From IMG/VR virus record IMGVR_UViG_646311924_000014: 30,487 nucleotides of DNA; one strand, 5' to 3'. The notes beneath the pieces are model-generated. The model had not been told where the DNA came from. It worked only from the letters and a program-made list of their open reading frames with translations, and did no database searches. The position numbers were made by a program, and so were the translations under genes. Numbering within the stretch: the stretch's first letter is position 1; the number at the start of each line of letters is the position of its first letter. Of this stretch, positions 1 to 26,789 are shown piece by piece. This stretch comes from a virus. Its lineage: Duplodnaviria > Heunggongvirae > Uroviricota > Caudoviricetes.

Positions 1-1236
1 CTATGATAACCGCGCATTCAACATGGCTACCTGTTCGTCGTTCATGTCATCAATCCACATACCGTAAATTTCATACACCATCTGCGCAGTTTCATGCCCC
101 ATTTGGCTGGCTATAAATGCCGGGTTCGCTCCTGCCGTCAACAGCCAGCAGGCAAAAGTATGCCGCGTATGGTACGGATTACGGCGGCGAATACCAGCAC
201 GTTTTACTGCTGCATTCCACCTTGCCCCCAAACTGCTTACCGAGTAATAAGGTTTTTGTTTTCCGTTACACACCCTGGGCATGAAAACAAAATGCAGTTT
301 TTGCTTTTCGGTTCTGCCGTACTCCCGATGATAAAAGGTGATTTCGCTTTTGCGATGATGCCCGGTCAGTTTGTATTGCTCCTTCAGTGCTTCAAGAGCA
401 GGCTGCAGTAGTGTTACCGTCCGGATCCCCGCATTTGTTTTTGGGGGACCGAACATATCCAGTATCGTCAGGTTTCTTCTGACATTCACAACTCCCTTCT
501 CGAAATCCACATCCTCCCACGCCAGAGCAGCCAGTTCCCCGTGACGAAGCCCGGAGTATACGGCAAATTTCCACAAGTTCTGGCTCTGTCCTTTTTCACT
601 TTCCATTAATGCATTGAATTCTGTTTTAGATAACGGGTCAGGCTTTATTCTGTTTCTCTGTAATTTCTTTACTCCTTCAAATGGTTTGGTTGATATAAAT
701 CCCGACTGATACGCAAAACGTAACAACGAACAGAGCAGGGCGATATAGTTATCAACTGTGCGCACGGTTCTTCCTTTTTTGTTGGATCTTGGATTATCCA
801 GGTAAAGCGTTTCTCCATGCAGCAGTTCATTCCGGTAGTTTAAGATATCGCTATAACGAATATGCGATATCGGAGTACTCTCACAAATTATTATCCTGAG
901 TGTTTTTAATTGTGATTTCGTTTTCTTCATTGTGTTTGTTGTTAACTCTGTTTCTTTAATTTTTGTCCAGATATCACAAAGCTCCCCGAACGTTTTTATG
1001 ACCCTCGTTGTCACCATTTTTGCCCCAGTGCTGGACTGGGGAAAACGTCTTAAATACTCAAACTCACCGGAATTGATTTCATGAACTATCAACGCTCTTA
1101 AATTCCCGGCTTTTTTAATGTTACTGTTAGTAACCTCCCAGCCTTTCAATGTTTCCCGACATCGTTTTCCTCGAAACATGAACCAGATGCGAATGTATTT
1201 ACCTCGAATCTCGACACCTGTTGGTAATTTAGACAT
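1..1236 (-). CDS. int: Phage tyrosine integrase (411 aa), Rac/lambdoid type; stop codon is at window position 1-3
   Basis: Full-length minus-strand ORF; C-terminal region carries the R...HxxR...Y catalytic pattern of tyrosine recombinases (HTRHTFA... YxxY); sits next to an excisionase-like gene. Confidence 0.9.
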   Translation of the reverse strand: MSKLPTGVEIRGKYIRIWFMFRGKRCRETLKGWEVTNSNIKKAGNLRALIVHEINSGEFEYLRRFPQSSTGAKMVTTRVIKTFGELCDIWTKIKETELTTNTMKKTKSQLKTLRIIICESTPISHIRYSDILNYRNELLHGETLYLDNPRSNKKGRTVRTVDNYIALLCSLLRFAYQSGFISTKPFEGVKKLQRNRIKPDPLSKTEFNALMESEKGQSQNLWKFAVYSGLRHGELAALAWEDVDFEKGVVNVRRNLTILDMFGPPKTNAGIRTVTLLQPALEALKEQYKLTGHHRKSEITFYHREYGRTEKQKLHFVFMPRVCNGKQKPYYSVSSLGARWNAAVKRAGIRRRNPYHTRHTFACWLLTAGANPAFIASQMGHETAQMVYEIYGMWIDDMNDEQVAMLNARLS

Positions 1237-1237
1237 A

Positions 1238-1453
1238 TCATGAGTCTTTGATAAACTGATTTATCTTTGGATAGTTATACCAGATAATCCCTCGCTTACT
1301 GTCTGGCTTCCCTAAAGGAGATACTCGTTTGAAGTGGAAGCCTTCCACCCAACAGTTCTGGCGGTATGCTTCAATTTGTCTGGCCCCCAGACCAGTGCGA
1401 AGCATCAGGCCGTATTCAACCATCCACTCTTCATTAAAGATTACTTGTGCCAT
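1238..1453 (-). CDS. xis: Excisionase-like small DNA-binding protein (71 aa from the internal ATG MAQVIF...)
   Basis: Small ORF immediately upstream of int on the same strand (stop at 1238-1240, int start at 1236); size and position typical of xis; start chosen at ATG 1451-1453. Confidence 0.6.
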
Positions 1454-1552
1454 CGCATCACCTCTGGCAGGCGCCAATGTTAGACTTAAATTGACGCCCG
1501 ATGTTGATTATTAATAATCAGCTATGAAGTTTTAATTTGAATACAATGCAAT

Positions 1553-1813
1553 TCACGAGGACTGAAGTTTCTCGCAATTAAAATTTATCAGTTTTACTTT
1601 CTGCTCTCTGGAAACGCCTGCTTCTTTTTTACCTGAGAGCATTTTTTCGCATTCTGATTTCGTTAGTTTAGATTTTGAATATCTTGTCCAGTTAGTAGGA
1701 GTGCCACCTTCCTTTTCAATAGTGGCGGTAATTTTATACATGAACACCTCCATTATTATTTCCAGTGGTTCGTTTATTTCATCGTTCGAGTGCTTCTTTT
1801 TCACTTCCACCAT
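1553..1813 (-). CDS. Hypothetical prophage early-region protein (86 aa)
   Basis: ORF with ATG start, same strand as int/xis, Lys-rich; no family recognised; overlaps the 3' end of the Lar-like ORF in another frame. Confidence 0.4.
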   Translation of the reverse strand: MVEVKKKHSNDEINEPLEIIMEVFMYKITATIEKEGGTPTNWTRYSKSKLTKSECEKMLSGKKEAGVSREQKVKLINFNCEKLQSS

Positions 1814-1940: not shown

Positions 1941-1983
1941 AAAAATATTTCAAGTTGGCGGTGCATTACACCGCCAGGCTGAA

Positions 1984-2196
1984 TTATTCCTCTGAATTAT
2001 CGATTACACTGTATTCCCCGGTTAATACAGAGGAATCTGCAGGATCGATTGTCAGTGGTTCCTTTTCATCCATTGATACTGCACGCTGGATCTCAATTGA
2101 TACGGGCAGATATTTGAACAGGCGACGAATAGCCGTTTTCTTTGCCATTTCTTCCCAGTGAGTTACCCACGGCCCGTTATTACCAGCTTTACTCTG
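1984..2196 (-). pseudogene. recT: 3' fragment of recT (ssDNA-annealing recombinase), truncated by IS629
   Basis: Minus-strand frame open from the IS boundary to TAA at 1984-1986, encoding ...WEEMAKKTAIRRLFKYLPVSIEIQRAVSMDEKEPLTIDPADSSVLTGEYSVIDNSEE, recalled as the RecT C-terminus; no upstream part of the gene exists on the other side of the IS. Confidence 0.6.
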
Positions 2197-2238
2197 TGAA
2201 CCGCCCCGGGTTTCCTGGAGAGTGTTTTATCTGTGAAC

Positions 2239-3129
2239 TCAGGCTGCCAGATCATCGTTTCCGATGGAAGCATAATAAGCTTTTTCTGCTTCTGCCGGAG
2301 GAGTATGGCCCAGCCTTCCCAGCAATCGTCGATTGTTATACCAGTCCACCCACGTTAGTGTGGCCAGTTCCACTTCTGCACGGTTTTTCCAGCTCTTACG
2401 GTGTATTACCTCCGCTTTGTAAAGACCATTGATGCTCTCAGCCATCGCGTTGTCATACGAGTCGCCTGTACTCCCTGTTGATGCCAGTAATCCGGCTTCT
2501 TTTAGTCGCTCCGTATAGGCCAGTGACACATACTGAGAGCCTTTATCGCTGTGATGGATGGTGCCAGACGGACGACGGGCCCACAACGCCTGCTCCAGCG
2601 CATCCAGCACGAATGTCGTTTCCATAGACGATGAGACCCGCCACCCCACGATGTATCCGGCAAACACATCAATGATAAACGCCACATAGACGAAGCCCTG
2701 CCATGTGCTGACGTAAGTAAAATCAGCCACCCACAGCTGGTCAGGTCGTTCTGCCACGAACTGACGGTTTACGCGGTCGCCTGCGGCAACGGCTTTCCGG
2801 CTGATGGTCGTACGGACCTTTTTACCCCGGAGAACACCGGCAAGTCCCATAACCGCCATGAGACGTGCCACTGTACATCTGGCCACCCTGATTCCTTCCC
2901 GTAACAACTGACGCCAGACTTTACGCACACCGTACACCTGATGATTTTCATCGTATACGCGCTGTATCTCTCTCTTCAGCCAGTCGTCGTGCTGCGCACG
3001 GGCACTGCGTTTATCCGGATGATGTCGCTGTTGCTGACAATGGTAATACGTTGACGGGGCAATATGCAGTTCGCTGCATACCGGTCCGACCCCGTACTGC
3101 TCACGCAGCTTATCCAGCAGTGGCATCAT
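2239..3129 (-). CDS. IS629 OrfB (DDE transposase catalytic domain, 296 aa; expressed as OrfAB by -1 frameshift)
   Basis: IS3-family OrfB sequence pattern (…HSDKGSQY…YDNAMAES…); starts at ATGATG directly after the A6 run that ends orfA. Confidence 0.9.
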
Positions 3130-3452
3130 TTTTTCCAGAGGCGGTCGAACTCCGCCTTCGCAAAATAAGCGGAAGCCTGGCGAAGGATATCGTTACTGCG
3201 GCGCAGTTCACGATTTTCACGTTCCAGCTCTTTCAGACGCTGACGTTCAGCGCTGGTGAGCCCACCATCACCGCCCCCGGTATCCCGCTCATGCTGGCGA
3301 ACCCAGACACGCAGAGTCTCCGGCGTACAGCCAATCTTTGGGGCAATGGAACAAATTGCCGCCCACTGTGAGTCATATTCATCCTGACTTTCCAGAACCA
3401 TACGAATCGCCCGCTGACGGACTTCGGGGGAAAAACGAGTATTTTTAGTCAT
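3126..3452 (-). CDS. IS629 OrfA (HTH transposase N-terminal protein, 108 aa)
   Basis: [23 protein letters not shown]... with a leucine-zipper-like C-terminus, typical IS3-family OrfA. Confidence 0.9.
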
Positions 3453-3510
3453 CCTGTTTACCTCTTTCTCAGGGAGTTTAGTCTCCAGGATTTCCGGGGC
3501 GGTTCAGTTT

Positions 3511-3705
3511 TTGTTGGAGAACGGAATAATGTATCGCCTCGCTGGAAAAATGACGCCTTACTCGCATCACCTGGATGCGGGGCGGTTTAGCGTGAAAACG
3601 GGCGAGGCGGGCAATGGTCATGCTTTTACGCAGGTTAAATTCACCCCAAAAGGTGTTCAGTGGATTGCTGGTCTGCTTGCTGCATGGAGAGCTACCGCAG
3701 CATGA
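3511..3705 (+). pseudogene. Truncated ORF abutting the right end of IS629; probable 3' remnant of a lysis-region gene (antirepressor or endolysin?)
   Basis: Open frame starts 5 bp after the IS end with no plausible ATG or RBS; lies just upstream of Rz; identity not recognised. Confidence 0.25.
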
Positions 3706-3942
3706 AGATGATAAAAACGGACTGGAAATTTTTGCTGGTCTGGCTGATTCCGTTTTTATGGGTGGTTGCCCGGTTAATTACTGCTATTAAGGGGTAAAGA
3801 TGTCAGACAAACTCATAATGCTGGCGAAGGGCCTTTGTGTAATCGTCGGTATTTCATTTTCACTAATGCTGGTTGTTCTTTTTCTTTCCATAACCTGGAT
3901 GGCGTTGACTTCGGCAGGGCTGGTGGGGTGAGCATAAACCGA

Positions 3943-4401
3943 ATGCTTTCCGCGTTTACCGTTATTCTGCTGGTGGTCTGTGGTGCGCTTAGTCTGGGGC
4001 TGAATCATTACCGCGATAACGTCATCACCTACAAAGCGCAGCGCGATAAAAAAGCCAGAGAGCTGGAGCTGGCAAACGCAACCATTACTGATATGCAGGT
4101 GCGCCAGCGCGATGTTGCTGCGCTCGATGCAAAATACTCGAGGGAATTAGCCGATGCGAGAGCTGAAAATGAAACTCTGCGTGCTGATGTTGCCGCTGGT
4201 CGTAAGCGCCTGCGGATCAACGCCACCTGCTCCGGTACCGTGCGTGAAGCCACCGGCACCTCCGGCGTGGATAATGCAACCGTCCCCCGACTGGCAGACA
4301 CCGCTGAACGGGATTATTTCATCCTCAGAGAACGGTTGATGACAATGCAGAAGCAGCTGGAAGGGGCACAGGACTATATCCGCACTCAGTGCCTGAACTA
4401 A
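3943..4401 (+). CDS. Rz: Rz inner-membrane spanin (i-spanin)
   Basis: N-terminal TM segment then coiled-coil; strong similarity to recalled lambda Rz (…NHYRDN.ITYKAQRDK.ARELELANA.ITDMQ.RQRDVAALDAKY…ERDYF.LRERL.TMQKQLEG.Q.YI…); ATG at 3943 chosen over the TTG at 3835 reported by the ORF track. Confidence 0.85.
   Translation: MLSAFTVILLVVCGALSLGLNHYRDNVITYKAQRDKKARELELANATITDMQVRQRDVAALDAKYSRELADARAENETLRADVAAGRKRLRINATCSGTVREATGTSGVDNATVPRLADTAERDYFILRERLMTMQKQLEGAQDYIRTQCLN
4154..4339 (+). CDS. Rz1: Rz1 outer-membrane lipoprotein spanin (o-spanin), embedded in Rz in the +1 frame
   Basis: Lipobox (LVVSAC) followed by a Pro-rich segment (CVKPPAPPAWIMQPSPDWQTPLNGII), matching lambda Rz1; fully nested within Rz. 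Confidence 0.8.
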   Translation: MRELKMKLCVLMLPLVVSACGSTPPAPVPCVKPPAPPAWIMQPSPDWQTPLNGIISSSENG

Positions 4402-4739
4402 GTTTTGCTGATGCGCCGTATCGTCGCTGTATTCCCTCATTAACAGAGACCGCAGCCCGACAGGGAGACTCCTCTGCGCGAGTGTGCGGGGAGAATCAAA
4501 AACGATACGCACCGGGGTTTACCGCGTTAACGGAGCGCGGCGTTGTCCCCTCATGGTCGCTGGTTCGGTGCGATGGTGGAAGAAACCGGACGATGTGTTA
4601 CCTCGCAAGACCTGTTATGTCATGTGTCTGATTTGTGATTTAAGTCGGATAATTGTCGTTGCCATTAAGCAGAGGATTGATGGCCGACAGGGTGGCATTG
4701 TTAGAATAAGACTTATTCTTATCTGTGCCGGGAATGAAA

Positions 4740-5398: not shown

Positions 5399-5439
5399 AT
5401 TTATTTCCTTTACTGATTGCCATATGACGGGGATTTTAC

Positions 5440-5805
5440 ATGGCTGAGCTTCGTACACTCCAGAGCAGAATCAAAACACTGAATACCCGACGGGTGAATA
5501 TTCTGAAGGGTGAACAGCGTCGTGTCAGTGGCAGTGCACGTGTTTCCCTCAAGCGTCATATCTGGCTCAGGGATGCCGGGCAGTGCTGTCTCTGTGGTCG
5601 TGTGGTTGACCTCTGTGACAGTGAACTCGATCACCGAATTGCACTTCAGTTCGGTGGTGGTAATGAGGAGACGAATCTCTGGACGCTCTGTACCGAATGC
5701 CATCGACAAAAGTCTGCTCGTGAAGCGGCGGGTGGTATGCCGGACCCGACGCTGCCGGAGGTGTCCGGAGGTAGTGGCAGAGCGGACGACATCATCGGAC
5801 TGTAA
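5440..5805 (+). CDS. HNH endonuclease (packaging-associated)
   Basis: CxxC...DHRIALQFGG...N..LCTECH zinc-finger HNH motif; directly upstream of the terminase genes as in HK97-like cos phages. Confidence 0.85.
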   Translation: MAELRTLQSRIKTLNTRRVNILKGEQRRVSGSARVSLKRHIWLRDAGQCCLCGRVVDLCDSELDHRIALQFGGGNEETNLWTLCTECHRQKSAREAAGGMPDPTLPEVSGGSGRADDIIGL

Positions 5806-5895
5806 CCCGAGCGGGGGGGTATCATCCGGCGTAAAAAACGATCGCTCCGGACACCGCGCCCCCTCTCACGCAGAGAAAAAATTCCCGTTTCAGGG

Positions 5896-6021
5896 CAGTT
5901 AACATGTTAACTGGCTGTCCGGGCATTTTTGCGGTTTTTATCTTTATTATTCAGTTTGTTGTGCGAAAAAAATGTTAACTGGCTTTTTCATCAAATGTTA
6001 ACCAGGCAGCAGTTAACATTT
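5896..6021. promoter_or_regulatory. Candidate packaging (cos/terminase-recognition) region with five copies of ATGTTAAC in palindromic arrangement
   Basis: Perfect 18-bp palindrome CAGTTAACATGTTAACTG (5896-5913); AATGTTAACTGG (5971-5982); inverted pair AAATGTTAAC-N9-GTTAACATTT (5993-6021); located between HNH and terS. Confidence 0.35.
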
Positions 6022-6093
6022 GCGGCATGAGACGCCGGGAAAAATGGGCTGAACCATACCCGGCTGAGTGCGTTCTGGACCCGGGAGGAGGCT

Positions 6094-6657
6094 GTGCTGA
6101 CAACGCAAAAACGAAAATTTGCGCTGGCGCTCATGTCCGGGAAAAACAAAACAGCGTCAGCCATTGCCGCTGGTTATTCGGCGAAGACCGCCAGGGTTAA
6201 AGGCTCGCAGCTGGCAAAAGATCCGGAGGTGCTTGCGTTTATAGCCCGTAAACAATGCGAGACGGTGGAGGTGGATGAGGTTCCTGTTTACCGGCAGAAA
6301 AAATCAGAGCAGGAGGATAAACCCCGTCGCCGTGAGGCGGCTGCAATACCACAGCCGGACGAAAACAATCCGGAGATGCCACCGTCCGCGGTGATGTCTC
6401 CTGGTATTGAATATATGGAGGATGGTCTTCCCGATCCGGTGAAAGCGATGGGGCGTCTTCTGGTGGAGAACATTAATACCGACCCCAGGCTGGCGCTGGA
6501 TGCGGCTTATAAGCTGGCGCAGTTCACGCACCATAAAAAAGGGGATGCCGGTAAAAAATCGGCAAAAGGTGACGCGGCGAAAAAAGCGGCTAACCGTTTT
6601 GCGGTGCCACCACCACCCCGCCTGGTGGTGAATAATGATAATGAGGGCAACGGATGA
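6094..6657 (+). CDS. Terminase small subunit
   Basis: GTG start 8 nt after a perfect GGGAGGAGG Shine-Dalgarno; N-terminal HTH pattern (…FALALMSGKNKTASAIAAGYSAKTA…) typical of small terminase; ATGA overlap with terL. Confidence 0.8.
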   Translation: MLTTQKRKFALALMSGKNKTASAIAAGYSAKTARVKGSQLAKDPEVLAFIARKQCETVEVDEVPVYRQKKSEQEDKPRRREAAAIPQPDENNPEMPPSAVMSPGIEYMEDGLPDPVKAMGRLLVENINTDPRLALDAAYKLAQFTHHKKGDAGKKSAKGDAAKKAANRFAVPPPPRLVVNNDNEGNG

Positions 6658-8315
6658 TACCTGTGTGGAGCACGGCCTGCCCGGACTGGGCAGAGCGCCT
6701 GAAAAAGGGGCTGTCGATTATTCCGGCTCCGATTTATCCGGACCAGGCTGCACATGCACTGGCGATTTTTAAACAACTGCGAATTGTGGATGCACCGGGT
6801 AGCCCGACATTCGGGGAGTCCTGTGCACCGTGGGTGTTTGACCTGGTGGCGGCCCTGTTTGGCTCCTACGATGCGCAGACCGGTGTTCGCCATATCAAGG
6901 AAGTGTTTATCCTTATCCCCAAGAAAAACTCGAAGTCCACGCTGGCTGCGGGGATCATGATGACGGCGCTGTTACTGAACTGGCGGCAGGCGGCGGGCTA
7001 CACCATTCTGGCCCCGACCGTGGAGGTGGCGGCTAACGCCTTCAACCCTGCCAGGGATATGGTACGACGGGACGATGATCTGGATGACCTCTGTCAGGTG
7101 CAGACACATATCCGGACCATCACCCATCGGGTGACGGACACCACCCTGAAGGTGGTGGCAGCCGATCCGAATACGGTGTCCGGTATCAAGTCCGTGGGGA
7201 CTCTGATTGATGAACTGTGGCTGTTTGGCAAGCAGTACAAGGCGGAAGACATGCTACGTGAAGCCATCGGCGGGCTTGCCTCCCGTCCGGAAGGGTTTGT
7301 GGTGTATACGACCACCCAGTCGAATGAACCGCCCGCCGGGGTGTTCAGACAGAAACTGCAGTATGCCCGGGATGTGCGCGACGGCAAAATTCATGATCCG
7401 CACTTTCTGCCGGTGATTTTTGAGCATCCTCCTGAAATGGTGGAAAGCGGGGCTCACCTGCTGATGGAAAACCTCGCCATGGTTAACCCGAATCTCGGTT
7501 ATTCGGTGGATGAGGCCTTTCTGTACCGGGAGTACCGTAAAGCCCGGGAGGCTGGTGAGGAAGCATTTCGTGGCTTCATGTCAAAACACGCCAATGTGGA
7601 AATTGGTCTTGCCCTGCGTTCTGACCGCTGGGCAGGGGCGGATTTCTGGGAGCAGCAGGGCAGGCGCGTCAGCCTGGACGATATCCTGCAGCGCGCTGAT
7701 GTGGTGACGGTGGGGATTGACGGCGGGGGCCTGGATGATCTGCTGGGAATGTACGTGACTGGCCGTGACAGGGAAACCCGCGAATGGCTGGGCTGGGGCC
7801 ATGCCTGGGTGCATGAAACCGCGGTGGTCAGACGGAAGAGTGAGGCATCCCGGTTTCAGGATTTTGTGGCCTGTGGAGACATGACGATTGTCCGTCGGGT
7901 CGGGGATGACACGGCGGAAGTGGCGGAGTATGTGCGTCGTATTCATGAGGCTGAGTTACTGGATCATATCGGTATTGACCCGTCAGGTGTGGGGCAGATT
8001 CTGGATTCACTGGCGGAAGCCGGGATCCCCGATGAGAGTGTGGTGGGGATAAGCCAGGGCTGGAAGCTGGGCGGGGCCATCAAAACCACCGAGCGCAAAC
8101 TGGCTGAAGGGGTGCTGATTCACGGTGATCAGCCCCTGATGGCCTGGTGTGTCGGTAATGCCCGGGTGGAGCCTAAAGGTAACGCCATTCTTATCACCAA
8201 ACAGGCCAGCGGACGGGGAAAAATTGACCCGCTGATGGCGCTGTTCAATGCGGTCTCCCTGATGTCCCTTAACCCGGAACCGAAAAAGAAAGAATATGCG
8301 GTTTTTTTCATATAA
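6654..8315 (+). CDS. Terminase large subunit (553 aa)
   Basis: Size, position and ATPase/nuclease organisation of HK97-type TerL (…LIPKKNSKST… P-loop-like segment; acidic nuclease motifs in the C-terminal half). Confidence 0.9.
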   Translation: MIPVWSTACPDWAERLKKGLSIIPAPIYPDQAAHALAIFKQLRIVDAPGSPTFGESCAPWVFDLVAALFGSYDAQTGVRHIKEVFILIPKKNSKSTLAAGIMMTALLLNWRQAAGYTILAPTVEVAANAFNPARDMVRRDDDLDDLCQVQTHIRTITHRVTDTTLKVVAADPNTVSGIKSVGTLIDELWLFGKQYKAEDMLREAIGGLASRPEGFVVYTTTQSNEPPAGVFRQKLQYARDVRDGKIHDPHFLPVIFEHPPEMVESGAHLLMENLAMVNPNLGYSVDEAFLYREYRKAREAGEEAFRGFMSKHANVEIGLALRSDRWAGADFWEQQGRRVSLDDILQRADVVTVGIDGGGLDDLLGMYVTGRDRETREWLGWGHAWVHETAVVRRKSEASRFQDFVACGDMTIVRRVGDDTAEVAEYVRRIHEAELLDHIGIDPSGVGQILDSLAEAGIPDESVVGISQGWKLGGAIKTTERKLAEGVLIHGDQPLMAWCVGNARVEPKGNAILITKQASGRGKIDPLMALFNAVSLMSLNPEPKKKEYAVFFI

Positions 8316-8378
8316 CCCTGTTCACACTGTAACCATCACGAACCGCTCCGGCGGTTTTTTTATTTTCAGGAGGCTGAT

Positions 8379-16099: not shown

Positions 16100-19000
16100 A
16101 TGGCGACGTTACGTGAACTGATTATCAAAATTTCGGCAAATTCGCAGTCATTCCAGTCGGAGATCCAGCGGGCTTCCCGTATGGGCAGTGAATATTACCG
16201 GACCCTGCAGAATGGCGGGCGTCAGGCCGCTGCGGCAGCCCGGGATCAGCGACGTGCCCTGGCAGAACTGAACAGCCAGTTGACGGAAATTCGCGGTTCT
16301 GCTGTCGGAATGGCTGGCGCATTTGCCGGTGCCTTTGCCACCGGACACCTGATTTCACTGGCTGATGAGTGGAGTTCCGTGAATGCCCGTCTGAAACAGG
16401 CGTCGCAGTCATCTGATGAATTTTCGTCATCACAGAAAGTGCTGATGGATATCAGTCAGCGGACAGGTACCGCTTTTTCGGATAATGCGGCCCTGTTTGC
16501 CCGCTCGGCAGCCTCAATGCGTGAATATGGTTACAGTGCTGATGATGTGCTGAAGGTGACGGAGGCCATTTCCACGGGGCTGAAAATCTCCGGTGCCAGT
16601 ACGGCTGAGGCGGGTTCGGTGATCACCCAGTTCAGCCAGGCGCTGGCACAGGGTGTGTTGCGCGGTGAGGAATTTAATTCGGTCAATGAAAGTGGTGACC
16701 GGATCGTACGTGCACTGGCTGCGGGTATGGGCGTGGCCCGTAAAGATCTGAAGGCGATGGCGGACGATGGTCAACTGACGGCGGATAAAGTCGTTCCTGC
16801 GTTAATCAGCCAGCTGGAGGTATTGCGTGATGAATACGCGGCCATGCCGGAAACGGTCTCTGACGGGATCACAAAGGTGGAAAACGCCTTTATGGCCTGG
16901 GTGGGTGGTGCGAATGAGGCCAGCGGGGTGACGAAAACGCTCTCCGGCGTGCTGAACGGTGTTGCCGGACAGATTGATAATGTGGCAACAGCCGTGGGGG
17001 CACTGGTTGCCGTCGGGGTTGCCCGGTACTTTGGCAATATGGCCTCCGGAGCGATGTCTGCCACGGCAGGACTTGTGACGGCTGCACGTAATGAAGTTGC
17101 ACTGGCGGAAGCACAGTTCAGGGGAACGCAGATTGCCACGGCGCGGGCAAGAGCAGCCGTGTACCGTGCTCAGCAGGCCGTGGCGGCAGCCCGCGGGACG
17201 GAGATGCAGATTGCTGCAGAAGCCCGTCTGGCGGCCACACAGGAACGCCTGAACAGAAATATTGCTGCCAGAAGCGCCGCCCAGAATGCGCTGAACAGTA
17301 CAACGGCGGTGGGCTCACGTCTGATGAGCGGTGCGCTGGGGCTGGTTGGTGGCGTACCCGGACTGGTGATGCTGGGGGCTGCAGCATGGTACACGCTGTA
17401 CCAGAATCAGGAGCAGGCCAGGGAGTCTGCGCGCCAGTATGCACTGACGATAGATGAAATCGCGCATAAAACGCCGTCAATGTCTTTGCCTGAAGCCTCA
17501 GATAATGAAGGACGAACACGGGCGGCGCTGACAGAGCAGAACCGACTGATTGATGAACAGGCCAGTCGGGTGAAATCCCTGCAGGAAAAAATCGCAGGAT
17601 ATCAGTATGTTCTGGCGAACCCGGGCTGGACGACCGGTGACGGATTCATGATAAACCATCTGACCTCGGTGAAGACCGTAACGGAAGGGCTTGCTCAGGC
17701 AACAGAGCAGCTTGCCGTTGAGCAGTCCCGTCTGGCACAGATGCAGGAAAAAGCGCAGTCCATTCAGGATGTGCTTGCCGGGCTGGAAGACCGTCGTGTG
17801 GCGTTAATTCGTCAGCAGGCGGCAGAGCAGAATAAGGTGTACCAGTCCATGCTGGTTATGAACGGTCAGCATACGGAATTCAACCGTCTGCTGGGGCTGG
17901 GTAATGAACTGCTTCAGCAGCGGCAGGGACTGGTGAATGTGCCGTTACGGCTGCCACAGGCCACTCTGGATGATAAACAGCAGAGTGCCCTGACAAAAAC
18001 AGAGCGTGAGCTGGCCCTGTCCAGACTGAAAGGGGAAGAAAAAGAGCGTGCCCGGCTGGGGTATGCGGCGGATGACCTTGGTTTTGTGGGGGATTCGTAT
18101 CAGGAGGCGAGACAGCGTTATATCAGTAATGCTCTGGAAGCCTGGCGTAATAACGAGGCGAACAAACCTAAATCCCGGGGTGGAAAATCAGAGACGGAAA
18201 AAGCGGAAGACAGTTTTTCCCGGCTGCTGAAGCAGCAGAAGGCGCAACTGGCACTGGCCGGTCAGAATACAGAGCTGGCGAAGCTGAAGTACCAGACTGC
18301 GCAGGGCGAACTGAAAACCCTGACGGAGATACAGAAGCAGGAGCTGCTGCGCAATGCGGCCCTGATTGACCAGCAAAAAATCCGGGAACAGTTGCGATCC
18401 CGGGAAGAGACACTGAAGAATGAGAATGCGGCTGCGCGTGCGTCGAATGATGCTGAACTGCTGGGGTACGGGCAGGGGGAGCGAGCCAGAGAACGCATGC
18501 GGGAGTTGCAGCAGATCCGCGACAGCTTCCGCCAGAAGGATGCGGACCTTCAGTCTCAGTATCAGACCGGGGATATCAGTGAGGATTTTTACAGACAGGC
18601 TCTGGCACAGAACGCGCAGTATCTGAGTGAACGCCTTAAAGACCAGGAAACTTTTTATGCCGAATCGGATGCGCAGCGTGCGGACTGGCAGAAAGGGCTG
18701 CAGGAGGGATTCAGTAACTGGGTGGATAATGCGTCCGATTACGCCTCACAGGCAGCACAGCTTGCGACGGAGGGTATCTCAGGGATGGTGAATAACATCA
18801 CGGAGATGCTGAACGGAAACAAAGTGGAATGGCGCAGCTGGGCCTCATCCGTACTGCAGGAAATATCAAAAGTTCTTATGAATGCGGCCATTGTCAACGG
18901 AATTAAGACGGCGGCAAACGGTATGTCCGGTGCGGGAGGATTTCTCGGCAGCATTGGTGACTGGCTGGGCGGAGCGGTGGCCAATGCAAAAGGCGGCGTG

Positions 19001-19342
19001 TATACCTCGGCAAACCTGAGTGCGTACAGCAACAGTATTGTGGATACGCCCACGTACTTTGCCTTTGCAAAAGGGGCCGGGCTGATGGGGGAGGCCGGAC
19101 CTGAAGCCATTATGCCCCTGACCCGGGCGGCGGATGGCTCGCTGGGTGTGCGCGCGGTGGGCAGTATGAACGGCAGTGCGGGTCTGGTGTATTCCCCGGT
19201 CTACCATATCGCCATTCAGAATGACGGGACTAATGGCCAGATAGGGCCGGAGGCGGCAGGCAGTCTTGTGCAGCTGATTGACCAGCGGGTGCAGGCGGTG
19301 ATGCTGTCCATGCGACGTGACGGAGGAATGCTGAGTGGCTGA
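16100..19342 (+). CDS. Tail tape measure protein (1080 aa)
   Basis: Length, Ala/Gln-rich coiled-coil composition, glycine-rich hydrophobic segments, position after G/GT. Confidence 0.9.
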   Translation: MATLRELIIKISANSQSFQSEIQRASRMGSEYYRTLQNGGRQAAAAARDQRRALAELNSQLTEIRGSAVGMAGAFAGAFATGHLISLADEWSSVNARLKQASQSSDEFSSSQKVLMDISQRTGTAFSDNAALFARSAASMREYGYSADDVLKVTEAISTGLKISGASTAEAGSVITQFSQALAQGVLRGEEFNSVNESGDRIVRALAAGMGVARKDLKAMADDGQLTADKVVPALISQLEVLRDEYAAMPETVSDGITKVENAFMAWVGGANEASGVTKTLSGVLNGVAGQIDNVATAVGALVAVGVARYFGNMASGAMSATAGLVTAARNEVALAEAQFRGTQIATARARAAVYRAQQAVAAARGTEMQIAAEARLAATQERLNRNIAARSAAQNALNSTTAVGSRLMSGALGLVGGVPGLVMLGAAAWYTLYQNQEQARESARQYALTIDEIAHKTPSMSLPEASDNEGRTRAALTEQNRLIDEQASRVKSLQEKIAGYQYVLANPGWTTGDGFMINHLTSVKTVTEGLAQATEQLAVEQSRLAQMQEKAQSIQDVLAGLEDRRVALIRQQAAEQNKVYQSMLVMNGQHTEFNRLLGLGNELLQQRQGLVNVPLRLPQATLDDKQQSALTKTERELALSRLKGEEKERARLGYAADDLGFVGDSYQEARQRYISNALEAWRNNEANKPKSRGGKSETEKAEDSFSRLLKQQKAQLALAGQNTELAKLKYQTAQGELKTLTEIQKQELLRNAALIDQQKIREQLRSREETLKNENAAARASNDAELLGYGQGERARERMRELQQIRDSFRQKDADLQSQYQTGDISEDFYRQALAQNAQYLSERLKDQETFYAESDAQRADWQKGLQEGFSNWVDNASDYASQAAQLATEGISGMVNNITEMLNGNKVEWRSWASSVLQEISKVLMNAAIVNGIKTAANGMSGAGGFLGSIGDWLGGAVANAKGGVYTSANLSAYSNSIVDTPTYFAFAKGAGLMGEAGPEAIMPLTRAADGSLGVRAVGSMNGSAGLVYSPVYHIAIQNDGTNGQIGPEAAGSLVQLIDQRVQAVMLSMRRDGGMLSG

Positions 19343-19676
19343 GATAAAAACGCTGCATCTGGTCCCGCGTGAAGGGATGCAGGTGAGTGAGAAGCCGTCG
19401 GTGGTGAGGGTGCGGTTTGGTGACGGTTATGAACAGCGCCGCCCCACAGGGCTGAATCCTCAACTGAAGACGTTTCAGGCGGTGTTCCGGGTGACGGATG
19501 AGTCAACCCGGCGCTGGCTGGAAGAGTTTTTATCGTGGCATGGTGGTTACCGTGCCTTTTTGTGGCGACCGCCGAAACATAACCGGACGGTGAGGGTGGT
19601 GTGCCGGGAGTGGAGCGTCACGGATAACGCCCGGTACAGTGATTTCAGTTGTACGATTGAGCAGGTGGTGAACTGA
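19335..19676 (+). CDS. M: Minor tail protein M (lambda gpM homologue)
   Basis: 113 aa; position and similarity to recalled lambda M; GTG start overlapping the tape measure stop. Confidence 0.8.
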   Translation: MAEIKTLHLVPREGMQVSEKPSVVRVRFGDGYEQRRPTGLNPQLKTFQAVFRVTDESTRRWLEEFLSWHGGYRAFLWRPPKHNRTVRVVCREWSVTDNARYSDFSCTIEQVVN

Positions 19677-20374
19677 TGCAGGACATTCATGAAGAAAGTC
19701 TGAACGAGTCGGTTAAATCAGAGCAGTCACCGCGGGTGGTACTCTGGGAAATCGACCTGACGGTACAGGGTGGTGAGCGGTATTTTTTCTGTAATGAGCT
19801 GAATGAAAAAGGGAAGGCGGTCACCTGGCAGGGGCGGCAATATCAGGTATACCCGATTGACGGCAGCGGTTTTGAGATGAACGGGAAGGGCAGCAGTGCC
19901 AGACCGTCGCTGACGGTGTCCAATCTGTTTGGTCTGGTCACCGGGATGGCGGAGGACCTGCAGAGCCTGGTGGGGGCCACGGTGGTCCGCCGCCGGGTGT
20001 ATGCCCGTTTTCTGGATGCGGTGAATTTTGTGGCGGGCAATCCGGAAGCGGACCCGGAGCAGGAGCTGAGCGACCGCTGGGTGGTGGAGCAGATGTCAGA
20101 GCTGACGGCCATGACAGCCTCGTTTGTGCTGGCAACACCGACGGAGACGGACGGGGCGCTGTTTCCCGGTCGCATCATGCTGGCGAACACCTGTATGTGG
20201 GATTACCGGGGAGATGAATGCGGGTATAACGGTCCTGCGGTGGCGGATGAGTTCGACAACCCCACCACGGATATCCGTAAGGACAGATGCAGCAAGTGCA
20301 TGCGCGGGTGTGAGATGCGCGGCATGGTGGCTAATTTTGGCGGTTTCCTTTCCATTAATAAACTTTCGCAGTAA
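19676..20374 (+). CDS. L: Minor tail protein L (lambda gpL homologue)
   Basis: Near-colinear with recalled lambda L, including the C-terminal Cys cluster (CGYNGPAVADEFD…CSKCMRGC…FGGFLSINKLSQ). Confidence 0.9.
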   Translation: MQDIHEESLNESVKSEQSPRVVLWEIDLTVQGGERYFFCNELNEKGKAVTWQGRQYQVYPIDGSGFEMNGKGSSARPSLTVSNLFGLVTGMAEDLQSLVGATVVRRRVYARFLDAVNFVAGNPEADPEQELSDRWVVEQMSELTAMTASFVLATPTETDGALFPGRIMLANTCMWDYRGDECGYNGPAVADEFDNPTTDIRKDRCSKCMRGCEMRGMVANFGGFLSINKLSQ

Positions 20375-20384
20375 ATCCTGTTTT

Positions 20385-21128
20385 ATGACACAGACTGAAT
20401 CAGCGATTCTGGCGCATGCCCGGCGGTGTGCGCCAGCGGAGTCGTGCGGCTTCGTGGTGAGAACGCCGGAGGGGGAGCGGTATATCCCTTGTGTGAATAT
20501 CTCTGCAGAGCCGGAGGCGTATTTTCGTATTGCACCGGAAGACTGGCTGCGGGCAGAGATGCAGGGGGAGATTGTGGCACTGGTCCACAGTCATCCCGGT
20601 GGTCTGCCCTGGCTGAGCGAGGCCGACCGGCGGCTGCAGATAAAAAGTGCACTGTCCTGGTGGCTGGTCTGCCGGGGGGAAATTCATAAATTCCGCTGTG
20701 TGCCACATCTGACAGGACGGCGCTTTGAGCACGGGGTGACGGACTGTTACACGCTGTTCCGGGATGCCTACCATCTGGCGGGAATTGATATGCCGGATTT
20801 TGAGCGTGAGGATGACTGGTGGCGCAACGGTCAGAACCTGTACCTGGACAATATGGAGGCGACTGGTTTTTACAGGATTTCCCTGCCTTCCGCACAGCCT
20901 GGCGATATTCTGCTGTGCTGCTTTGGTGCTTCGGTACCGAACCATGCCGCCATTTACTGCGGCAACGGTGAGCTGCTTCACCATCTGCCTGAACAACTGA
21001 GTAAACGGGAGAGGTATTCCGAAAAATGGCAACGACGAACGCATTCAGCCTGGCGTCACCGCCACTGGCACGCATCTGCCTTCACGGGGATTTACAACGA
21101 TTTGGCCGCCGCCTCAGCCTGTATGTGA
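20385..21128 (+). CDS. K: Tail assembly protein K (lambda gpK homologue; JAB/MPN plus NlpC/P60-like domains)
   Basis: MTQTESAILAHARRCAPAESCGFVV…HSHPGG… closely matches lambda K; 3' end overlaps I by about 100 nt. Confidence 0.9.
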   Translation: MTQTESAILAHARRCAPAESCGFVVRTPEGERYIPCVNISAEPEAYFRIAPEDWLRAEMQGEIVALVHSHPGGLPWLSEADRRLQIKSALSWWLVCRGEIHKFRCVPHLTGRRFEHGVTDCYTLFRDAYHLAGIDMPDFEREDDWWRNGQNLYLDNMEATGFYRISLPSAQPGDILLCCFGASVPNHAAIYCGNGELLHHLPEQLSKRERYSEKWQRRTHSAWRHRHWHASAFTGIYNDLAAASACM

Positions 21129-21706
21129 ACACGGCAGCGGAAGCCATCCGGGCGCTGTCGTTACAGGTGCCCGGATTCCGCCGTCAGATGAACGAAGGCT
21201 GGTACCAGATACGTATTGCCGGTGATGACACGGCACCGGAGGCGGTGTACGCCCGTCTTCACGAACAGCTGGGTGAGGGAACGGTCATCCACATTGTGCC
21301 GCGACTGGCCGGGGCCGGAAAGGGTGGACTGCAGATTGTGCTGGGGGCGGCAGCCATCGTGGGCTCTTTCTTCACGGCCGGAGCATCGATGGCAGCCTGG
21401 GGTGCAGCGCTGAGTGCCGGCGGTTTTTCTGCCACCACGATGCTGTTTTCACTGGGTGCCAGCATGATACTGGGTGGTGTGGCACAGATGCTGGCCCCGA
21501 AGCCAAAAACACCGGAATACAGGGCAACGGATAACGGTAAACAGAACACGTACTTTTCGTCGCTGGACAACATGATTGCCCAGGGTAACCCGATGCCGGT
21601 GCCTTACGGGGAAATGCTGGTTGGCTCCCGCCGTATATCCCAGGACATCAGTACCCGTGATGAAGGCGGGGGCGGAAAGGTCGTGGTTATCGGGCGGCAG
21701 GCATAA
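21026..21706 (+). CDS. I: Tail assembly protein I (lambda gpI homologue)
   Basis: …ARICLHGDLQRFGRR…IHIVPRLAGAGKGG…NGKQNTYFSSLDNM… matches lambda I. Confidence 0.9.
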   Translation: MATTNAFSLASPPLARICLHGDLQRFGRRLSLYVNTAAEAIRALSLQVPGFRRQMNEGWYQIRIAGDDTAPEAVYARLHEQLGEGTVIHIVPRLAGAGKGGLQIVLGAAAIVGSFFTAGASMAAWGAALSAGGFSATTMLFSLGASMILGGVAQMLAPKPKTPEYRATDNGKQNTYFSSLDNMIAQGNPMPVPYGEMLVGSRRISQDISTRDEGGGGKVVVIGRQA

Positions 21707-21868
21707 AAGCGAAAAAATCCCGCAGTGCTCACGGACAGGAACTGCGGGAGCGTTACGAAGATTGAGTGTAAGGAATTATTCTTATGTCACGACAAAAACA
21801 TTAACTCAGAGAGGGAGGATGTGCCGTTCTTTTCAGGGAGAAAGGATTTATCGTCCTGAGGAATAAAG

Positions 21869-21892
21869 GTAAGGGGCCCGCCCCTTACCTGA
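21869..21892 (-). terminator. 10-bp perfect stem-loop immediately downstream of sodC
   Basis: AGGTAAGGGG-CCCG-CCCCTTACCT, 5 bp beyond the sodC stop. Confidence 0.4.
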
Positions 21893-21896
21893 CTGA

Positions 21897-22424
21897 TTAT
21901 TGAATGATGCCGCAGGCCATTCTCGCACCACCACCGCCCAGGGGCTCCGGATGGTCATGATGGTTATCACCGCCAGCATGAAGCATGAGAGAACGCCCTT
22001 TAATCTCTTTTAATGAGTTCAGTCTCGGGGCCAGGACCGGGTAGTTCGCTTTTCCGTCATGCGTCACGAACAGCGCAGGGAGGTCGCCCAGGTGTCCATC
22101 CGGAGACCAGGGGCCAAGATGTTTGCCGGTGTTTTTCGGGTCAAAGTGACCGCCAGCCGATAATGCTGCGACCGGTTTTCCGTCTTTCAGTGCCGGGGCG
22201 CAATTTCCTTTTTCGTGCACATGAAAACCATGAATGCCTTCAGACAGAGAGTGAAGGGCTGGTGTGAACAGCAGACCGTAGGGGGTCTCCTGAATGGTTA
22301 TTTTTCCAATGCTGACTTCTTTTCCGTCAGCACTGACAAGGTTCATTGGGACTTCCTGTTCTGCTGCGTATCCGCATGATGCTGCTGTCAGCATGGCAAT
22401 GGCAGCAATGATTTTACATTTCAT
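21897..22424 (-). CDS. sodC: Periplasmic Cu/Zn superoxide dismutase (prophage-borne SodC)
   Basis: Signal peptide [20 protein letters not shown]; Cu/Zn SOD motifs (GFHVHEKG, histidine ligands, C-terminal [12 protein letters not shown]); opposite strand to the tail operon. Confidence 0.9.
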
Positions 22425-22557
22425 AAAACCCTCATTAATTCCGTTAACAGACTGAGCTTGCTGGTTACAGGGTAACAAACAGCGTTCTGATGATATCGCG
22501 CAATAGCTGTGCAATATCCTATCACTGCGATTAATAATACCAATTGAGAGGAACATT

Positions 22558-25500
22558 ATGGGCAAAGGTGGCGGCAGGGCGCACACGCCTCGAGAGGCGA
22601 AGGATAATCTCAAATCCACGCAGATGATGAGTGTGATTGATGCGATTGGTGAGGGACCGATAGAAGGCCCGGTGAAGGGGCTGCAGAGTATCCTGGTGAA
22701 CAAAACCCCGCTGACGGACACGGACGGTAATCCCGTGATACACGGTGTGACTGCGGTCTGGCGTGCCGGGGAGCAGGAGCAGACACCACCGGAAGGCTTT
22801 GAGTCCTCCGGAGCTGAAACCGGACTGGGCGTGGAAGTGACGAAGGCAAAGCCGGTGACGCGCACCATTACGTCCGCGAACATTGACCGCCTGCGGGTTA
22901 CCTTCGGGGTGCAGTCACTGGTGGAGACCACCTCAAAGGGTGACCGTAACCCGACGTCTGTCCGCCTGCTGATTCAGCTTGAGCGTGGTGGTAAATGGAT
23001 GACGGAAAAGGATGTCACCATTAACGGCAAGACCACCTCGCAGTTCCTGGCGTCGGTGATTCTGGATAATCTGCCGCCCCGGCCCTTTAACATCCGGATG
23101 GTCAGGGAGACGGCGGACAGCACCACGGACCAGCTGCAGAATAAGACGCTCTGGTCGTCATACACCGAAATCATCGATGTGAAACAGTGCTACCCGAACA
23201 CGGCGATTGTGGGGCTGCAGGTGGATGCGGAGCAGTTTGGCGGTCAGCAGATGACGGTGAACTACCATATCCGCGGTCGCATTATTCAGGTGCCGTCAAA
23301 CTATGACCCGGAAAAACGCACGTACAGCGGCATCTGGGACGGCAGCCTGAAACCGGCATACAGCAACAACCCGGCCTGGTGTCTGTGGGACATGCTGACT
23401 CACCCGCGCTACGGGATGGGAAAACGTCTGGGGGCGGCGGATGTGGACAAATGGGCGCTGTATGCCATTGCGCAGTACTGCGACCAGACGGTGCCGGATG
23501 GTTTCGGGGGCACAGAGCCGCGGATGACCTTTAATGCATACCTGTCACAACAGCGTAAGGCGTGGGACGTCCTCAGTGATTTCTGCTCGGCGATGCGCTG
23601 TATGCCGGTATGGAACGGCCAGACGCTGACGTTCGTTCAGGACCGCCCGTCGGATGTGGTGTGGCCGTACACCAACAGCGATGTGGTGGTGGATGATAAC
23701 GGCGTGGGGTTTCGCTACAGCTTCAGCGCCCTGAAGGACCGCCACACGGCGGTGGAGGTGAATTACACCGACCCGCAGAACGGCTGGCAGACCTCCACGG
23801 AACTGGTGGAAGACCCGGAAGCCATACTGCGCTACGGGCGCAACCTGCTGAAGATGGATGCGTTCGGCTGCACCAGTCGCGGTCAGGCCCACCGTGCCGG
23901 GCTGTGGGTGATAAAGACCGGACTGCTGGAAACGCAGACGGTGGATTTCACGCTCGGGTCACAGGGGCTGCGTCACACACCCGGTGACATTATTGAAATC
24001 TGTGATAACGACTATGCCGGGACCATGACCGGCGGACGTATCCTGTCCATCGATGCCGCCAGCCGCACCCTGACACTGGACCGTGAGGTGACCCTGCCGG
24101 AGACAGGTGCCGCCACGGTGAACCTGATTAACGGCAGCGGTAAGCCGGTGAGCGTGGCCATCACTGCACACCCCGCGCCGGACCGGATACAGGTCAGCAC
24201 CCTGCCTGATGGTGTGGAGACATACGGTGTATGGGGACTCTCCCTGCCGTCACTGCGTCGTCGCCTGTTCCGCTGTGTCTCCATCCGGGAAAACACGGAC
24301 GGCACCTTTGCCATCACGGCGGTGCAGCACGTGCCGGAAAAAGAAGCCATCGTGGATAACGGGGCGCACTTTGACGGCGACCAGAGCGGCACGGTGAATG
24401 GTGTCACGCCGCCAGCGGTGCAGCACCTGACCGCCGAAGTCACCGCAGACAGCGGGGAATATCAGGTGCTGGCGCGCTGGGACACGCCGAAGGTGGTGAA
24501 GGGCGTGAGCTTCCTGCTTCGCCTGACCGTGGCAGCGGATGACGGCAGTGAGCGGCTGGTCAGCACGGCCAGGACGACAGAAACCACATACCGCTTCACG
24601 CAACTGGCGCCGGGGAACTACAGGTTGACAGTCCGGGCGGTAAATGCGTGGGGACAGCAGGGCGATCCGGCATCGGTATCGTTCCGGATTGCCGCACCGG
24701 CAGCGCCGTCTCGGATTGAGCTGACACCGGGCTATTTTCAGATAACCGCCACGCCGCATCTTGCGGTTTATGATCCGACGGTACAGTTTGAGTTCTGGTT
24801 CTCGGAAAAGCGGATTGCTGATATCAGGCAGGTTGAAACCACAGCCCGCTATCTTGGCACGGCGCTGTACTGGATAGCTGCCAGTATCAATATCAAACCG
24901 GGCCATGATTATTACTTTTATATCCGCAGTGTGAACACCGTTGGCAAATCGGCATTTGTAGAGGCTGTCGGTCAGCCGAGTGATGATGCATCAGGCTATC
25001 TGGATTTTTTCAAAGGCGAGATAGGGAAAACCCATCTGGCTCAGGAGCTGTGGACGCAGATTGATAACGGTCAGCTTGCGCCTGACCTGACTGAAATCAG
25101 GACGTCCATAACGGATGTCAGCAATGAAATAACACAGACCGTCAATAAGAAACTGGAAGACCAGAGTGCAGCGATCCAGCAGATACAGAAGGTTCAGGTT
25201 GATACAAATAATAACCTGAACAGCATGTGGGCAGTGAAGCTGCAGCAGATGCAGGACGGACGCCTTTATATTGCGGGTATCGGTGCCGGTATTGAGAACA
25301 CCCCCGACGGCATGCAGAGTCAGGTGCTGCTGGCAGCAGACAGGATTGCGATGATTAATCCTGCGAATGGCAACACAAAGCCGATGTTTGTTGGTCAGGG
25401 CGATCAGATATTCATGAATGAAGTGTTCCTGAAATATCTGACGGCTCCCACCATTACCAGCGGCGGTAATCCTCCGGCATTTTCCCTGACACCAGACGGG

Positions 25501-26055
25501 CGACTGACGGCGAAAAATGCGGATATCAGTGGCAGTGTGAATGCGAACTCAGGAGCGCTCAACAATGTCACGATTAACCAGAACTGTACGATTAAGGGCA
25601 TGCTGGAGGCGACCCAGGTCAGAGGGGATTTCGTTAAAGCTGTATCAAAAGCCTTCCCGAAAAAAGTCGGTACGTGGGGTAACACGGAAACACCAAACGG
25701 TACGGTTACAGTCACCATCAGCGATGATCATAACTTTGACCGCCAGATTATTATTCCGCCCATTATTTTTAACGGTATAGCGTATGACGATCCGGGGAGC
25801 GGAAATAACCCAGGAGGCACGCGATACACGGGGTATGGTTTTGAAGTTCGCAAAAACGGCGTATTAATCGCATCCAGAGAAACTAAAGGGGCCATTCCCG
25901 GTAGTTACAGTGCAGTTATTGATATGCCTAGTGGTGGTGGTAGCGTCACTCTGGAGTTTAAGATTTTCCAGAAAGGCAATCAGGGGGCAGGCAATATCAC
26001 CGACTGTACGGTGATTGTGACCAAAAAAGCTGCTTCCGGCATCAGTATTCGTTGA
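22558..26055 (+). CDS. J: Host specificity / central tail fibre protein J (1165 aa)
   Basis: Long colinear similarity to recalled lambda J from [18 protein letters not shown] through the fibronectin-like middle region; extreme C-terminus diverged. Confidence 0.95.
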
Positions 26056-26077
26056 AATATTTATAACCCCAATAAAG

Positions 26078-26102
26078 GGCGTCAGGAATGACGCCTTTTT
26101 TA
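26078..26102 (+). terminator. Rho-independent terminator-like hairpin after J
   Basis: GGCGTCA-loop-TGACGCC followed by a T-tract. Confidence 0.5.
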
Positions 26103-26125
26103 TTGCAGAAAAGCGAGAGGTAATT

Positions 26126-26725
26126 ATGCGTAAACTTTATGCCGCCATTTTGTCCGCAGCCATTTGTCTGACCGTATCCGGTGCGCCTGCATGGGCGTCT
26201 GAGCAGCAGGCCACGCTGAGCGCGGGGTATCTTCATGTCTCGACGAACGCTCCCGGTAGCGATAATCTTAACGGGATTAACGTGAAATACCGTTATGAAT
26301 TCACGGACACGCTGGGGCTGGTGACGTCATTCAGCTATGCAGGAGACAGGAATCGCCAGATTACCCGTTACAGCGATACCCGCTGGCATGAAGATTCCGT
26401 GCGTAACCGCTGGTTCAGCGTAATGGCGGGGCCGTCTGTGCGCGTGAATGAATGGTTCAGCGCGTATGCGATGGCGGGAGTGGCTTACAGCCGTGTGTCG
26501 ACTTTCTCCGGGGATTATCTCCGCGTAACTGACAACAAGGGGAAAACGCACGATGTGCTGACCGGAAGTGATGACGGTCGCCACAGCAACACGTCTCTGG
26601 CGTGGGGGGCTGGCGTGCAGTTTAACCCGACCGAATCCGTGGCCATTGATATTGCTTATGAAGGCTCCGGCAGTGGCGACTGGCGCACTGACGGTTTCAT
26701 CGTGGGTGTCGGTTATAAGTTCTGA
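26126..26725 (+). CDS. lom: Lom-like outer membrane protein (Ail/Lom/OmpX family)
   Basis: Signal peptide, alternating amphipathic beta-strand pattern, C-terminal aromatic (…GYKF); position after J as in lambda. Confidence 0.85.
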
Positions 26726-26752
26726 TTAGCCAGGTAACACAGTGTTATGACA

Positions 26753-26778
26753 GCCCGCCGGTTCAGGCGGGCTTTTTT
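26753..26778 (+). terminator. Rho-independent terminator after lom
   Basis: GCCCGCC-GGTTCA-GGCGGGC followed by TTTTTT. Confidence 0.6.
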
Positions 26779-26789
26779 GTGGGGTGAAT

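Follow-up and report, generated by a model that had tools for sequence, protein, structure and literature searches.

How does a complete insertion sequence (IS) come to stand between the 3' ends of two truncated genes, with different bases at its two borders? The question is raised by a stretch of 30,487 nucleotides from a virus of the class Caudoviricetes (IMG/VR record IMGVR_UViG_646311924_000014), which we call “the window” in its whole length. Near the left end of the window, an intact IS629/IS1203 separates the remnant of recT from the remnant of an antirepressor gene, ant, after which come the spanin genes Rz and Rz1. A first-pass annotation, made from the letters and their open reading frames (ORFs), had read this arrangement as a large IS-associated deletion that joined a truncated recT to a truncated lysis region. 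Comparison with related genomes agrees: 22,247 bp are missing, and we are as good as certain that a deletion exists and that it is anchored at an IS copy already in place. The junction and Rz/Rz1 are real as well; the part that has to be given up is recT as the implied site of insertion, as the ancestral site is in ant.

Two records give the window its context. Positions 528-23107 are 100% identical to 1743106-1765685 of AP010960.1, the chromosome of Escherichia coli O111:H- strain 11128, which was reached by exact-protein matching of the portal variant in the window. This record lies outside the RefSeq set of 5,426 complete E. coli genomes that we searched, and for that reason no record of the set carries the whole window junction. 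The second record is that of E. coli E2855 (NZ_AP018796.1), a close relative of 11128 that holds an undeleted version of the prophage adjoining ttcA. The E2855 prophage is 98.6-100% identical to the window, and the two left arms are 100% identical; the window starts at int, so that ttcA itself is outside. On these matches, we take the window to be a decayed Sp10/Rac-type lambdoid prophage at ttcA of strain 11128. Its site (ttcA), its intR/xisR module, and its recET early arm are those of the Sp10/Rac type. The functional immunity, replication, and lysis set of an inducible phage is not there, and the genes concerned all lie within the deleted 22,247 bp.

Alignment to an intact related prophage, which the first-pass annotation had suggested as a check, defines the missing segment to the base. 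By BLASTN, window positions 1-2196 correspond to E2855 1721635-1723830 and window positions 2197-5119 to E2855 1746078-1749000, both at 100% identity, and both segments keep the E2855 order and orientation. Between bases 2196 and 2197 of the window, E2855 1723831-1746077, exactly 22,247 bp, is absent. The breakpoint falls on the first base outside the right inverted repeat (IRR) of the element, without microhomology and without filler bases, and the IS end is intact. These are the two structural marks of an IS-adjacent deletion: the IS is kept intact at its original site, and the loss begins at the first base beyond its end.

What did the locus look like before? In E2855, the same IS is a simple insertion in ant, reading ...GGCTGTT-IS-GTTTTTG..., with GTT on both sides; the sequence across the ancestral junction with the 5' part of ant is TTCCGGCTGTT/TGAACCGCC. 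Genomes without the IS have a single GTT at the ant site. The right junction of ant::IS occurs in 26 complete genomes and the left junction in 29, all of the O111:H8/NM type or close to it. Because E2855 and the O111-type genomes have GTT-IS-GTT and the IS-free genomes have a single GTT, the element must have sat in ant first. Judged by these sequences, IS629 resided in ant before the deletion, and recT is merely the far endpoint. Insertion of IS629 into recT, which we considered as the origin of the present arrangement, was rejected on the same ground, the ancestral insertion site being in ant.

The flanks in the window follow from this history. They read ...ACTCTG-IS-GTTTTTG..., and the 3 bp next to the element are CTG at its left border and GTT at its right, just as the first-pass annotation had reported when it denied a simple insertion with a target-site duplication. 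The duplication is broken because of the deletion, which removed the GTT on the IRR side, one of the two copies. The remaining copy of the original 3-bp duplication in ant is the GTT at 3507..3509. No matching duplication with contiguous recT is present.

On the left, the recT remnant occupies 1984..2196 on the minus strand and comprises the last 70 codons and the stop codon of a 269-codon gene (Pfam RecT, E=1.4e-12). It equals the final 213 bp (1723618-1723830) of recT in E2855, where the gene measures 810 bp, in keeping with its earlier identification as a recT 3' end, and codon 200 now abuts the intact IS end. The sequence across this recT/IS junction is TACCAGCTTTACTCTG/TGAACCGCCCC. On the right, the truncated ORF that had been described as unrelated is indeed truncated and followed by Rz/Rz1, and it can now be named: it is what remains, at the 3' end, of a KilAC/ANT antirepressor gene, 65 codons at 3508..3705 on the plus strand (Pfam ANT, E=5e-14), annotated as a pseudogene by RefSeq in E2855. 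Ancestral ant lies between the lysozyme gene and Rz; it is an antirepressor gene situated inside the lysis cassette, not a lysis gene. Rz (3943..4401, plus strand; Pfam Phage_lysis, E=2e-49) and, embedded in it, Rz1 (4154-4339, plus strand; Pfam Rz1, E=8e-21) are the only lysis genes left in the window. Between the ant remnant and Rz is an ORF for a hydrophobic protein of 43 amino acids (3800..3931, plus strand), which is conserved, is annotated as the hypothetical protein WP_001280923.1, and has no Pfam match; it could be a small membrane protein tied to the lysis cassette.

The element itself, first described as IS629-like, is a complete IS629/IS1203 of 1310 bp at 2197..3506 on the minus strand (IS3 family, IS51 group), and the ant::IS copies of E2855 and other O111 genomes match it at 100%. 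Its IRR lies at 2197-2221 and its left inverted repeat (IRL) at 3482-3506; the terminal repeats are imperfect, start with TGAACCGCCCCGG, and agree at 22 of 25 positions. Both reading frames are on the minus strand: orfA at 3452-3126 (Pfam HTH_Tnp_1) and orfB at 3129-2239 (Pfam HTH_21 and rve). Their overlap sits at an A6 run, and Rfam finds the ALIL frameshift pseudoknot of the IS3 family at 3055-3171 on the minus strand (121.5 bits), the arrangement of a programmed -1 frameshift with a stimulatory pseudoknot. Simple insertions elsewhere carry a 3-bp duplication, GTT-IS-GTT in E2855 and other genomes and TTG-IS-TTG in recE of strain F3113. Length, ends, ORFs, frameshift signal, and the duplication in simple insertions are thus all those of IS629/IS1203. 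In other genomes, the identical copy bears the RefSeq label “IS3-like element IS1203 family transposase”; we take IS1203 and IS629 to be two names for near-identical elements. All copies that we compared, one from O157 included, are 100% identical, and these genomes hold tens of identical copies (up to 40 places per record).

Across O111 genomes, the ant::IS copy is found in at least five different derived states. In the O111 strains RM9322, 7-16 37A, and 14614, ant::IS629 keeps the ant 5' flank GTT, but at the opposite end it borders on an IS256 fragment, beyond which come nleG and espM1 (locus 5301-7100); in this GTT-IS-CCT state, the same copy has been rearranged in another way, on its IRL side. 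In UTAK-8 (NZ_CP168991.1, at ~2.555 Mb and ~2.825 Mb), ant is split into two halves that lie ~270 kb apart and are inverted. The first IS copy there joins the Q region of another prophage to the 3' part of ant (ATG-IS-GTT), and the second connects the 5' part of ant, shortened by 4 bp, with a truncated J, lom, and a tail fiber gene (GGC-IS-GAC). A simple reciprocal swap would not give such flanks, so that several IS-linked events must overlie one another in this strain.

In two further O111:H8 strains, the IS is gone from ant and frameshift footprints lie exactly at the insertion point. Strain 7-32 9A is 2 bp shorter and has a G inside the former T5 run (CTGTGTGTTGG replaces CTGTTTTTGTTGG); strain 02-3334 is 1 bp shorter, one T having been lost. 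Both footprints look like IS629 excision and, as far as sequence can tell, show excision-type activity at the ant::IS copy.

By what route was the interval lost? Our preferred answer, which we hold to be probable, is that a one-step adjacent deletion driven by the transposase produced the junction between recT and the IS. The course of events would be as follows. In the ancestor, IS629/IS1203 inserted into ant and created the GTT duplication. In normal transposition, the 3'-OH at IRR is transferred to the same strand 3 bases outside the other end of the IS. Here, the 3'-OH freed at IRR would instead attack the same strand 22 kb outward and join the IS end to recT. Replication or repair of that strand would then yield a chromosome in which the IS is kept and the interval deleted, possibly with help from the IS-excision enhancer (IEE) that is reported in O111:H8. 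A model of this kind has been called “sloppy strand transfer” and is attributed to Kusumoto et al. 2011 (bioRxiv 10.1101/2023.06.07.543989). In the long-term evolution lines, moreover, 14 adjacent deletions, from 14 bp to 48,894 bp long, arose at IS150, a member of the same family (PMC11708052).

We favor the one-step deletion because no recT::IS629 intermediate was found and because of the flank loss in UTAK-8 and the excision footprints. None of the 5,426 complete E. coli genomes has the recT/IS junction, and its exact 32-mer gave no match in either the GTDB species-representative genomes or the JGI metagenomes. An exact-protein look-up with the 54-amino-acid recT remnant returned only unrelated recT truncations (with ends near window 2148-2162) or frameshifted recT, none of them with the window junction, and a look-up with the 58-amino-acid ant remnant returned the ancestral arrangement only. 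In UTAK-8, it is the same end of the same IS copy that has lost the 4 bp of flank.

The strongest competing account has two steps. A second IS629 would have inserted into recT in the same orientation, duplicating CTG, and RecA-dependent recombination between the 1.3-kb direct repeats would have looped out 22 kb together with one IS. This account, a possible one that we nevertheless rate as rather unlikely, predicts the observed CTG-IS-GTT junctions exactly, and it can draw on a supply of IS629 that is abundant as identical copies in these genomes. Inter-IS recombination is also a documented cause of missing duplications (PMC11708052). The second junction predicted for the hypothetical recT::IS629 insertion is GGGGCGGTTCA/CTGGCTGCGCACCAGC. 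Against two steps, the recT/IS junction of the intermediate appears in no collection that was searched, and two independent events are needed in one 22-kb interval. The UTAK-8 flanks (ATG-IS-GTT and GGC-IS-GAC, with 4 bp lost beside IRR), not being a simple reciprocal swap, indicate that adjacent deletions also act at the ant::IS copy.

It is important to remember that several points weigh against our own account. A one-step deletion and a second insertion resolved by recombination would leave exactly the same sequence, which cannot by itself tell the two routes apart. A hybrid IS would be invisible, because all compared IS629 copies are 100% identical; the search for differences between copies as a sign of a recombinant IS returned none and is a test without power. 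In RM9322, 7-16 37A, and 14614 (GTT-IS-CCT) and in UTAK-8, the ant::IS copy is now joined to other loci, for which IS-IS recombination may be the simplest reading, a point that also speaks for the two-step account. The functional consequences that we draw below, no induction and no lysis, are inferred from gene content. Finally, copy-out-paste-in transposition by itself regenerates the donor, and adjacent deletions need an extra, uncharacterized resolution step (bioRxiv 10.1101/2023.06.07.543989).

Two further explanations fare worse. An inversion or translocation could have joined two different prophages through IS629, the missing genes having been relocated elsewhere in the genome. Joins of this sort between prophages do occur at IS copies in related strains, as with the ant junctions of UTAK-8, ~270 kb apart and inverted. 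Both flanks of the window element, however, are 100% identical to one single E2855 prophage, the E2855 order and relative orientation are kept, as a deletion predicts and an inversion does not, and the right arm continues with the late region and nleG cargo of that prophage. We consider a relocation very improbable, and an inversion or inter-prophage join was rejected on the kept order and orientation of one prophage. An assembly artifact, in which two IS629 copies of 11128, one in recT and one in ant, were collapsed and the 22 kb between them dropped, is barely credible: a multi-copy 1.3-kb repeat is a classic cause of collapse and the junction is in one public record only (AP010960.1), but that record is presumably a finished chromosome, Sanger-sequenced with gap closure, even a collapse presupposes a real recT/IS junction, which is found nowhere else, and the independent rearrangements at ant::IS in long-read genomes show that the instability of the locus is real.

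Which genes went with the deletion? Read from the E2855 annotation, the lost segment holds 31 protein-coding genes (2 of them already pseudogenes in E2855), 2 tRNA genes, and parts of 2 more genes. From the early arm, these are the 5' 597 bp of recT, recE, a racC-like gene, ydaE, kilR, sieB, and ydaF; among the regulators, a divergent helix-turn-helix pair in the repressor/cro position and ydaT. The replication genes, including that of the YdaV ATPase, are lost too, as are a DNA cytosine methyltransferase, an O-methyltransferase with its ATP-binding partner, and the nin-region genes DUF1367 and YbcO. The Q-like antiterminator is represented in E2855 by a DUF1133 gene in the Q position, its match to Phage_antitermQ being weak. 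The remainder consists of tRNA-Ile, tRNA-Arg, TerB, a SASA/DUF6645 esterase, and, on the lysis side, a class II holin, YdfR, the lysozyme, and the 5' 500 bp of ant. Elsewhere in the 30.5-kb window, neither the ORFs nor the E2855 annotation revealed a gene for a repressor, replication, Q, holin, or endolysin, and the absence of early regulatory, replication, and holin/endolysin genes noticed on first reading agrees with the content of the lost segment.

Lambdoid late transcription requires Q and an adjacent promoter, and lysis requires holin and endolysin. With the repressor/cro pair, the replication genes, Q and its late promoter, holin, and endolysin all lost, the prophage would have no induction, no replication, no switch-on of the late operon, and no lysis. 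From its gene content and established lambdoid biology, we infer that it is non-inducible and lysis-defective. It keeps int/xis and the virion genes, along with cargo (sodC, lom, nleG) that would be expressed independently. By analogy, the deletion plausibly ended a transfer capacity of the kind that Sp10 has.

The retained genes begin with intR, for a tyrosine integrase of 411 amino acids at the left end of the prophage at ttcA (1..1236, minus strand), identical to that of E2855, and the xisR excisionase gene (1238..1453, minus strand), assigned from the E2855 annotation through the 100% alignment. The small RNA antitoxin RalA (1557..1735, plus strand; Rfam RF02694, 225 bits) lies opposite a DUF1187 gene, and the toxin gene ralR follows at 1779-1928 on the minus strand by the E2855 annotation; this RalR/RalA pair of the Rac-type early arm outlives the deletion intact, immediately to the left of the recT remnant. 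A TonB_C-like gene is retained as well.

Downstream, an intact HK97-type packaging, head, and tail module extends over 5440..28374 on the plus strand, with ORF lengths equal to those of the annotated E2855 and 11128 genes. Its members are an HNH gene, TerS, TerL, protease-capsid, portal, connectors, tail genes, the tape measure protein, J, lom, and a tail fiber gene. Within it lies sodC (21897-22424, minus strand), and at the right end are three cargo genes for effectors of the DUF1076/NleG family (28436..30487, plus strand), placed by alignment to the E2855 annotation. The earlier description of a complete virion-assembly module with its cargo kept, namely sodC, lom, and three nleG, holds good. 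A simple promoter scan of the plus strand from the IS to the terminase gene returned no sigma-70-like site, a result with too little force to argue from.

The portal gene (10528-13107) has a feature of its own, a tandem repeat of 162 bp (54 codons) at 12115-12647 in its 3' part, present in 3.3 copies with a 94% match. E2855 and most O111:H8 relatives are ~161 bp shorter at this repeat, and the E2855 portal is annotated as frameshifted. Upstream of ~12.5 kb, nearly all of the mismatches between the window and E2855 lie in 10000-12500, a cluster that suggests, from the alignment, a recombination patch or a change in repeat number.

Other prophages at ttcA have their own IS-linked histories. In an unrelated E. 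coli of 4.56 Mb (AP025205.2, 2438807-2450971), a Rac-type prophage at ttcA has the same 54-amino-acid recT remnant, with an IS1 copy between it and a TolA-like gene, holin, lysozyme, and Rz. The early region was lost here in an analogous IS-linked event, independent of that in the window. In O157:H7 strain F3113, recE of the homologous ttcA prophage is interrupted by a simple insertion of IS629, identical to the window copy at 100% (TTG-IS-TTG; locus 7189-8498). IS629 has thus targeted the early arm of this prophage type repeatedly, in different lineages of enterohemorrhagic E. coli (EHEC).

The window describes an ordinary, well-documented route of EHEC prophage decay, and its value is that of a clean, base-resolved case of IS629 reshaping such prophages. 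The deletion explains why this O111 prophage is not a mobile phage but a harmless one, fixed in place, that carries virulence cargo (three NleG, SodC, and Lom). A bolder proposal would be that ant::IS629 and IEE act as a selected, recurrent “prophage immobilizer” that spares the nleG, sodC, and lom cargo, or that the remnant can still be excised, its genes being put to use or rescued in trans by Sp10-like prophages in the same cell. We give this little credence; the count of five states fits a hotspot and has no bearing on selection or on mobilization in trans. For those who annotate such records, we recommend that the prophage be labeled defective, that recT and ant be marked as remnants, and that the IS be described as lacking its duplication through adjacent deletion.

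The phenomenon is already known, since IS-driven inactivation of EHEC prophages has been described since 2009, and we claim no new principle. Deletions and excisions by IS629 and the immobilization of EHEC prophages were reportedly treated by Ooka et al. 2009 (Genome Res) and Kusumoto et al. 2011 (Nat Commun), and the 11128 genome itself is said to have been published in 2009. Adjacent deletions associated with IS629/IS1203 in EHEC range from a few nucleotides to more than 40 kb (PMC9943667; bioRxiv 10.1101/2023.06.07.543989). The deletion in 11128 shares with these the element, the EHEC host, the start at an intact IS end, and the loss of one duplication copy; its 22 kb is within the reported range, the target is likewise a prophage, and the phage is likewise immobilized. 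It differs in nothing essential, the junction being specific to strain 11128. The IS150 deletions (PMC11708052) are similar in that they involve an IS3-family element, span 14 bp to 48.9 kb, abut an existing IS copy, and have no target-site duplication. They differ in the IS concerned and in their E. coli B background, which lacks the EHEC prophage load. In addition, the IS150 events were seen arising, whereas the 11128 deletion is deduced by genome comparison.

As for the prophage, Sp10 of O157:H7 Sakai and Rac of K-12 share its integration site and an early arm of intR, xisR, ralR, recT, recE, kilR, and sieB (PMC2669165), and Sp10 has an HK97-like late region and effector cargo, as the window prophage does. 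Sp10 keeps its regulation, replication, and lysis genes and is transferable at low efficiency (PMC2669165). The window prophage, in contrast, has lost its genes for regulation, replication, and lysis, with the exception of Rz/Rz1. In Rac of K-12, decay took another course: the early genes are kept and most of the late ones are gone.

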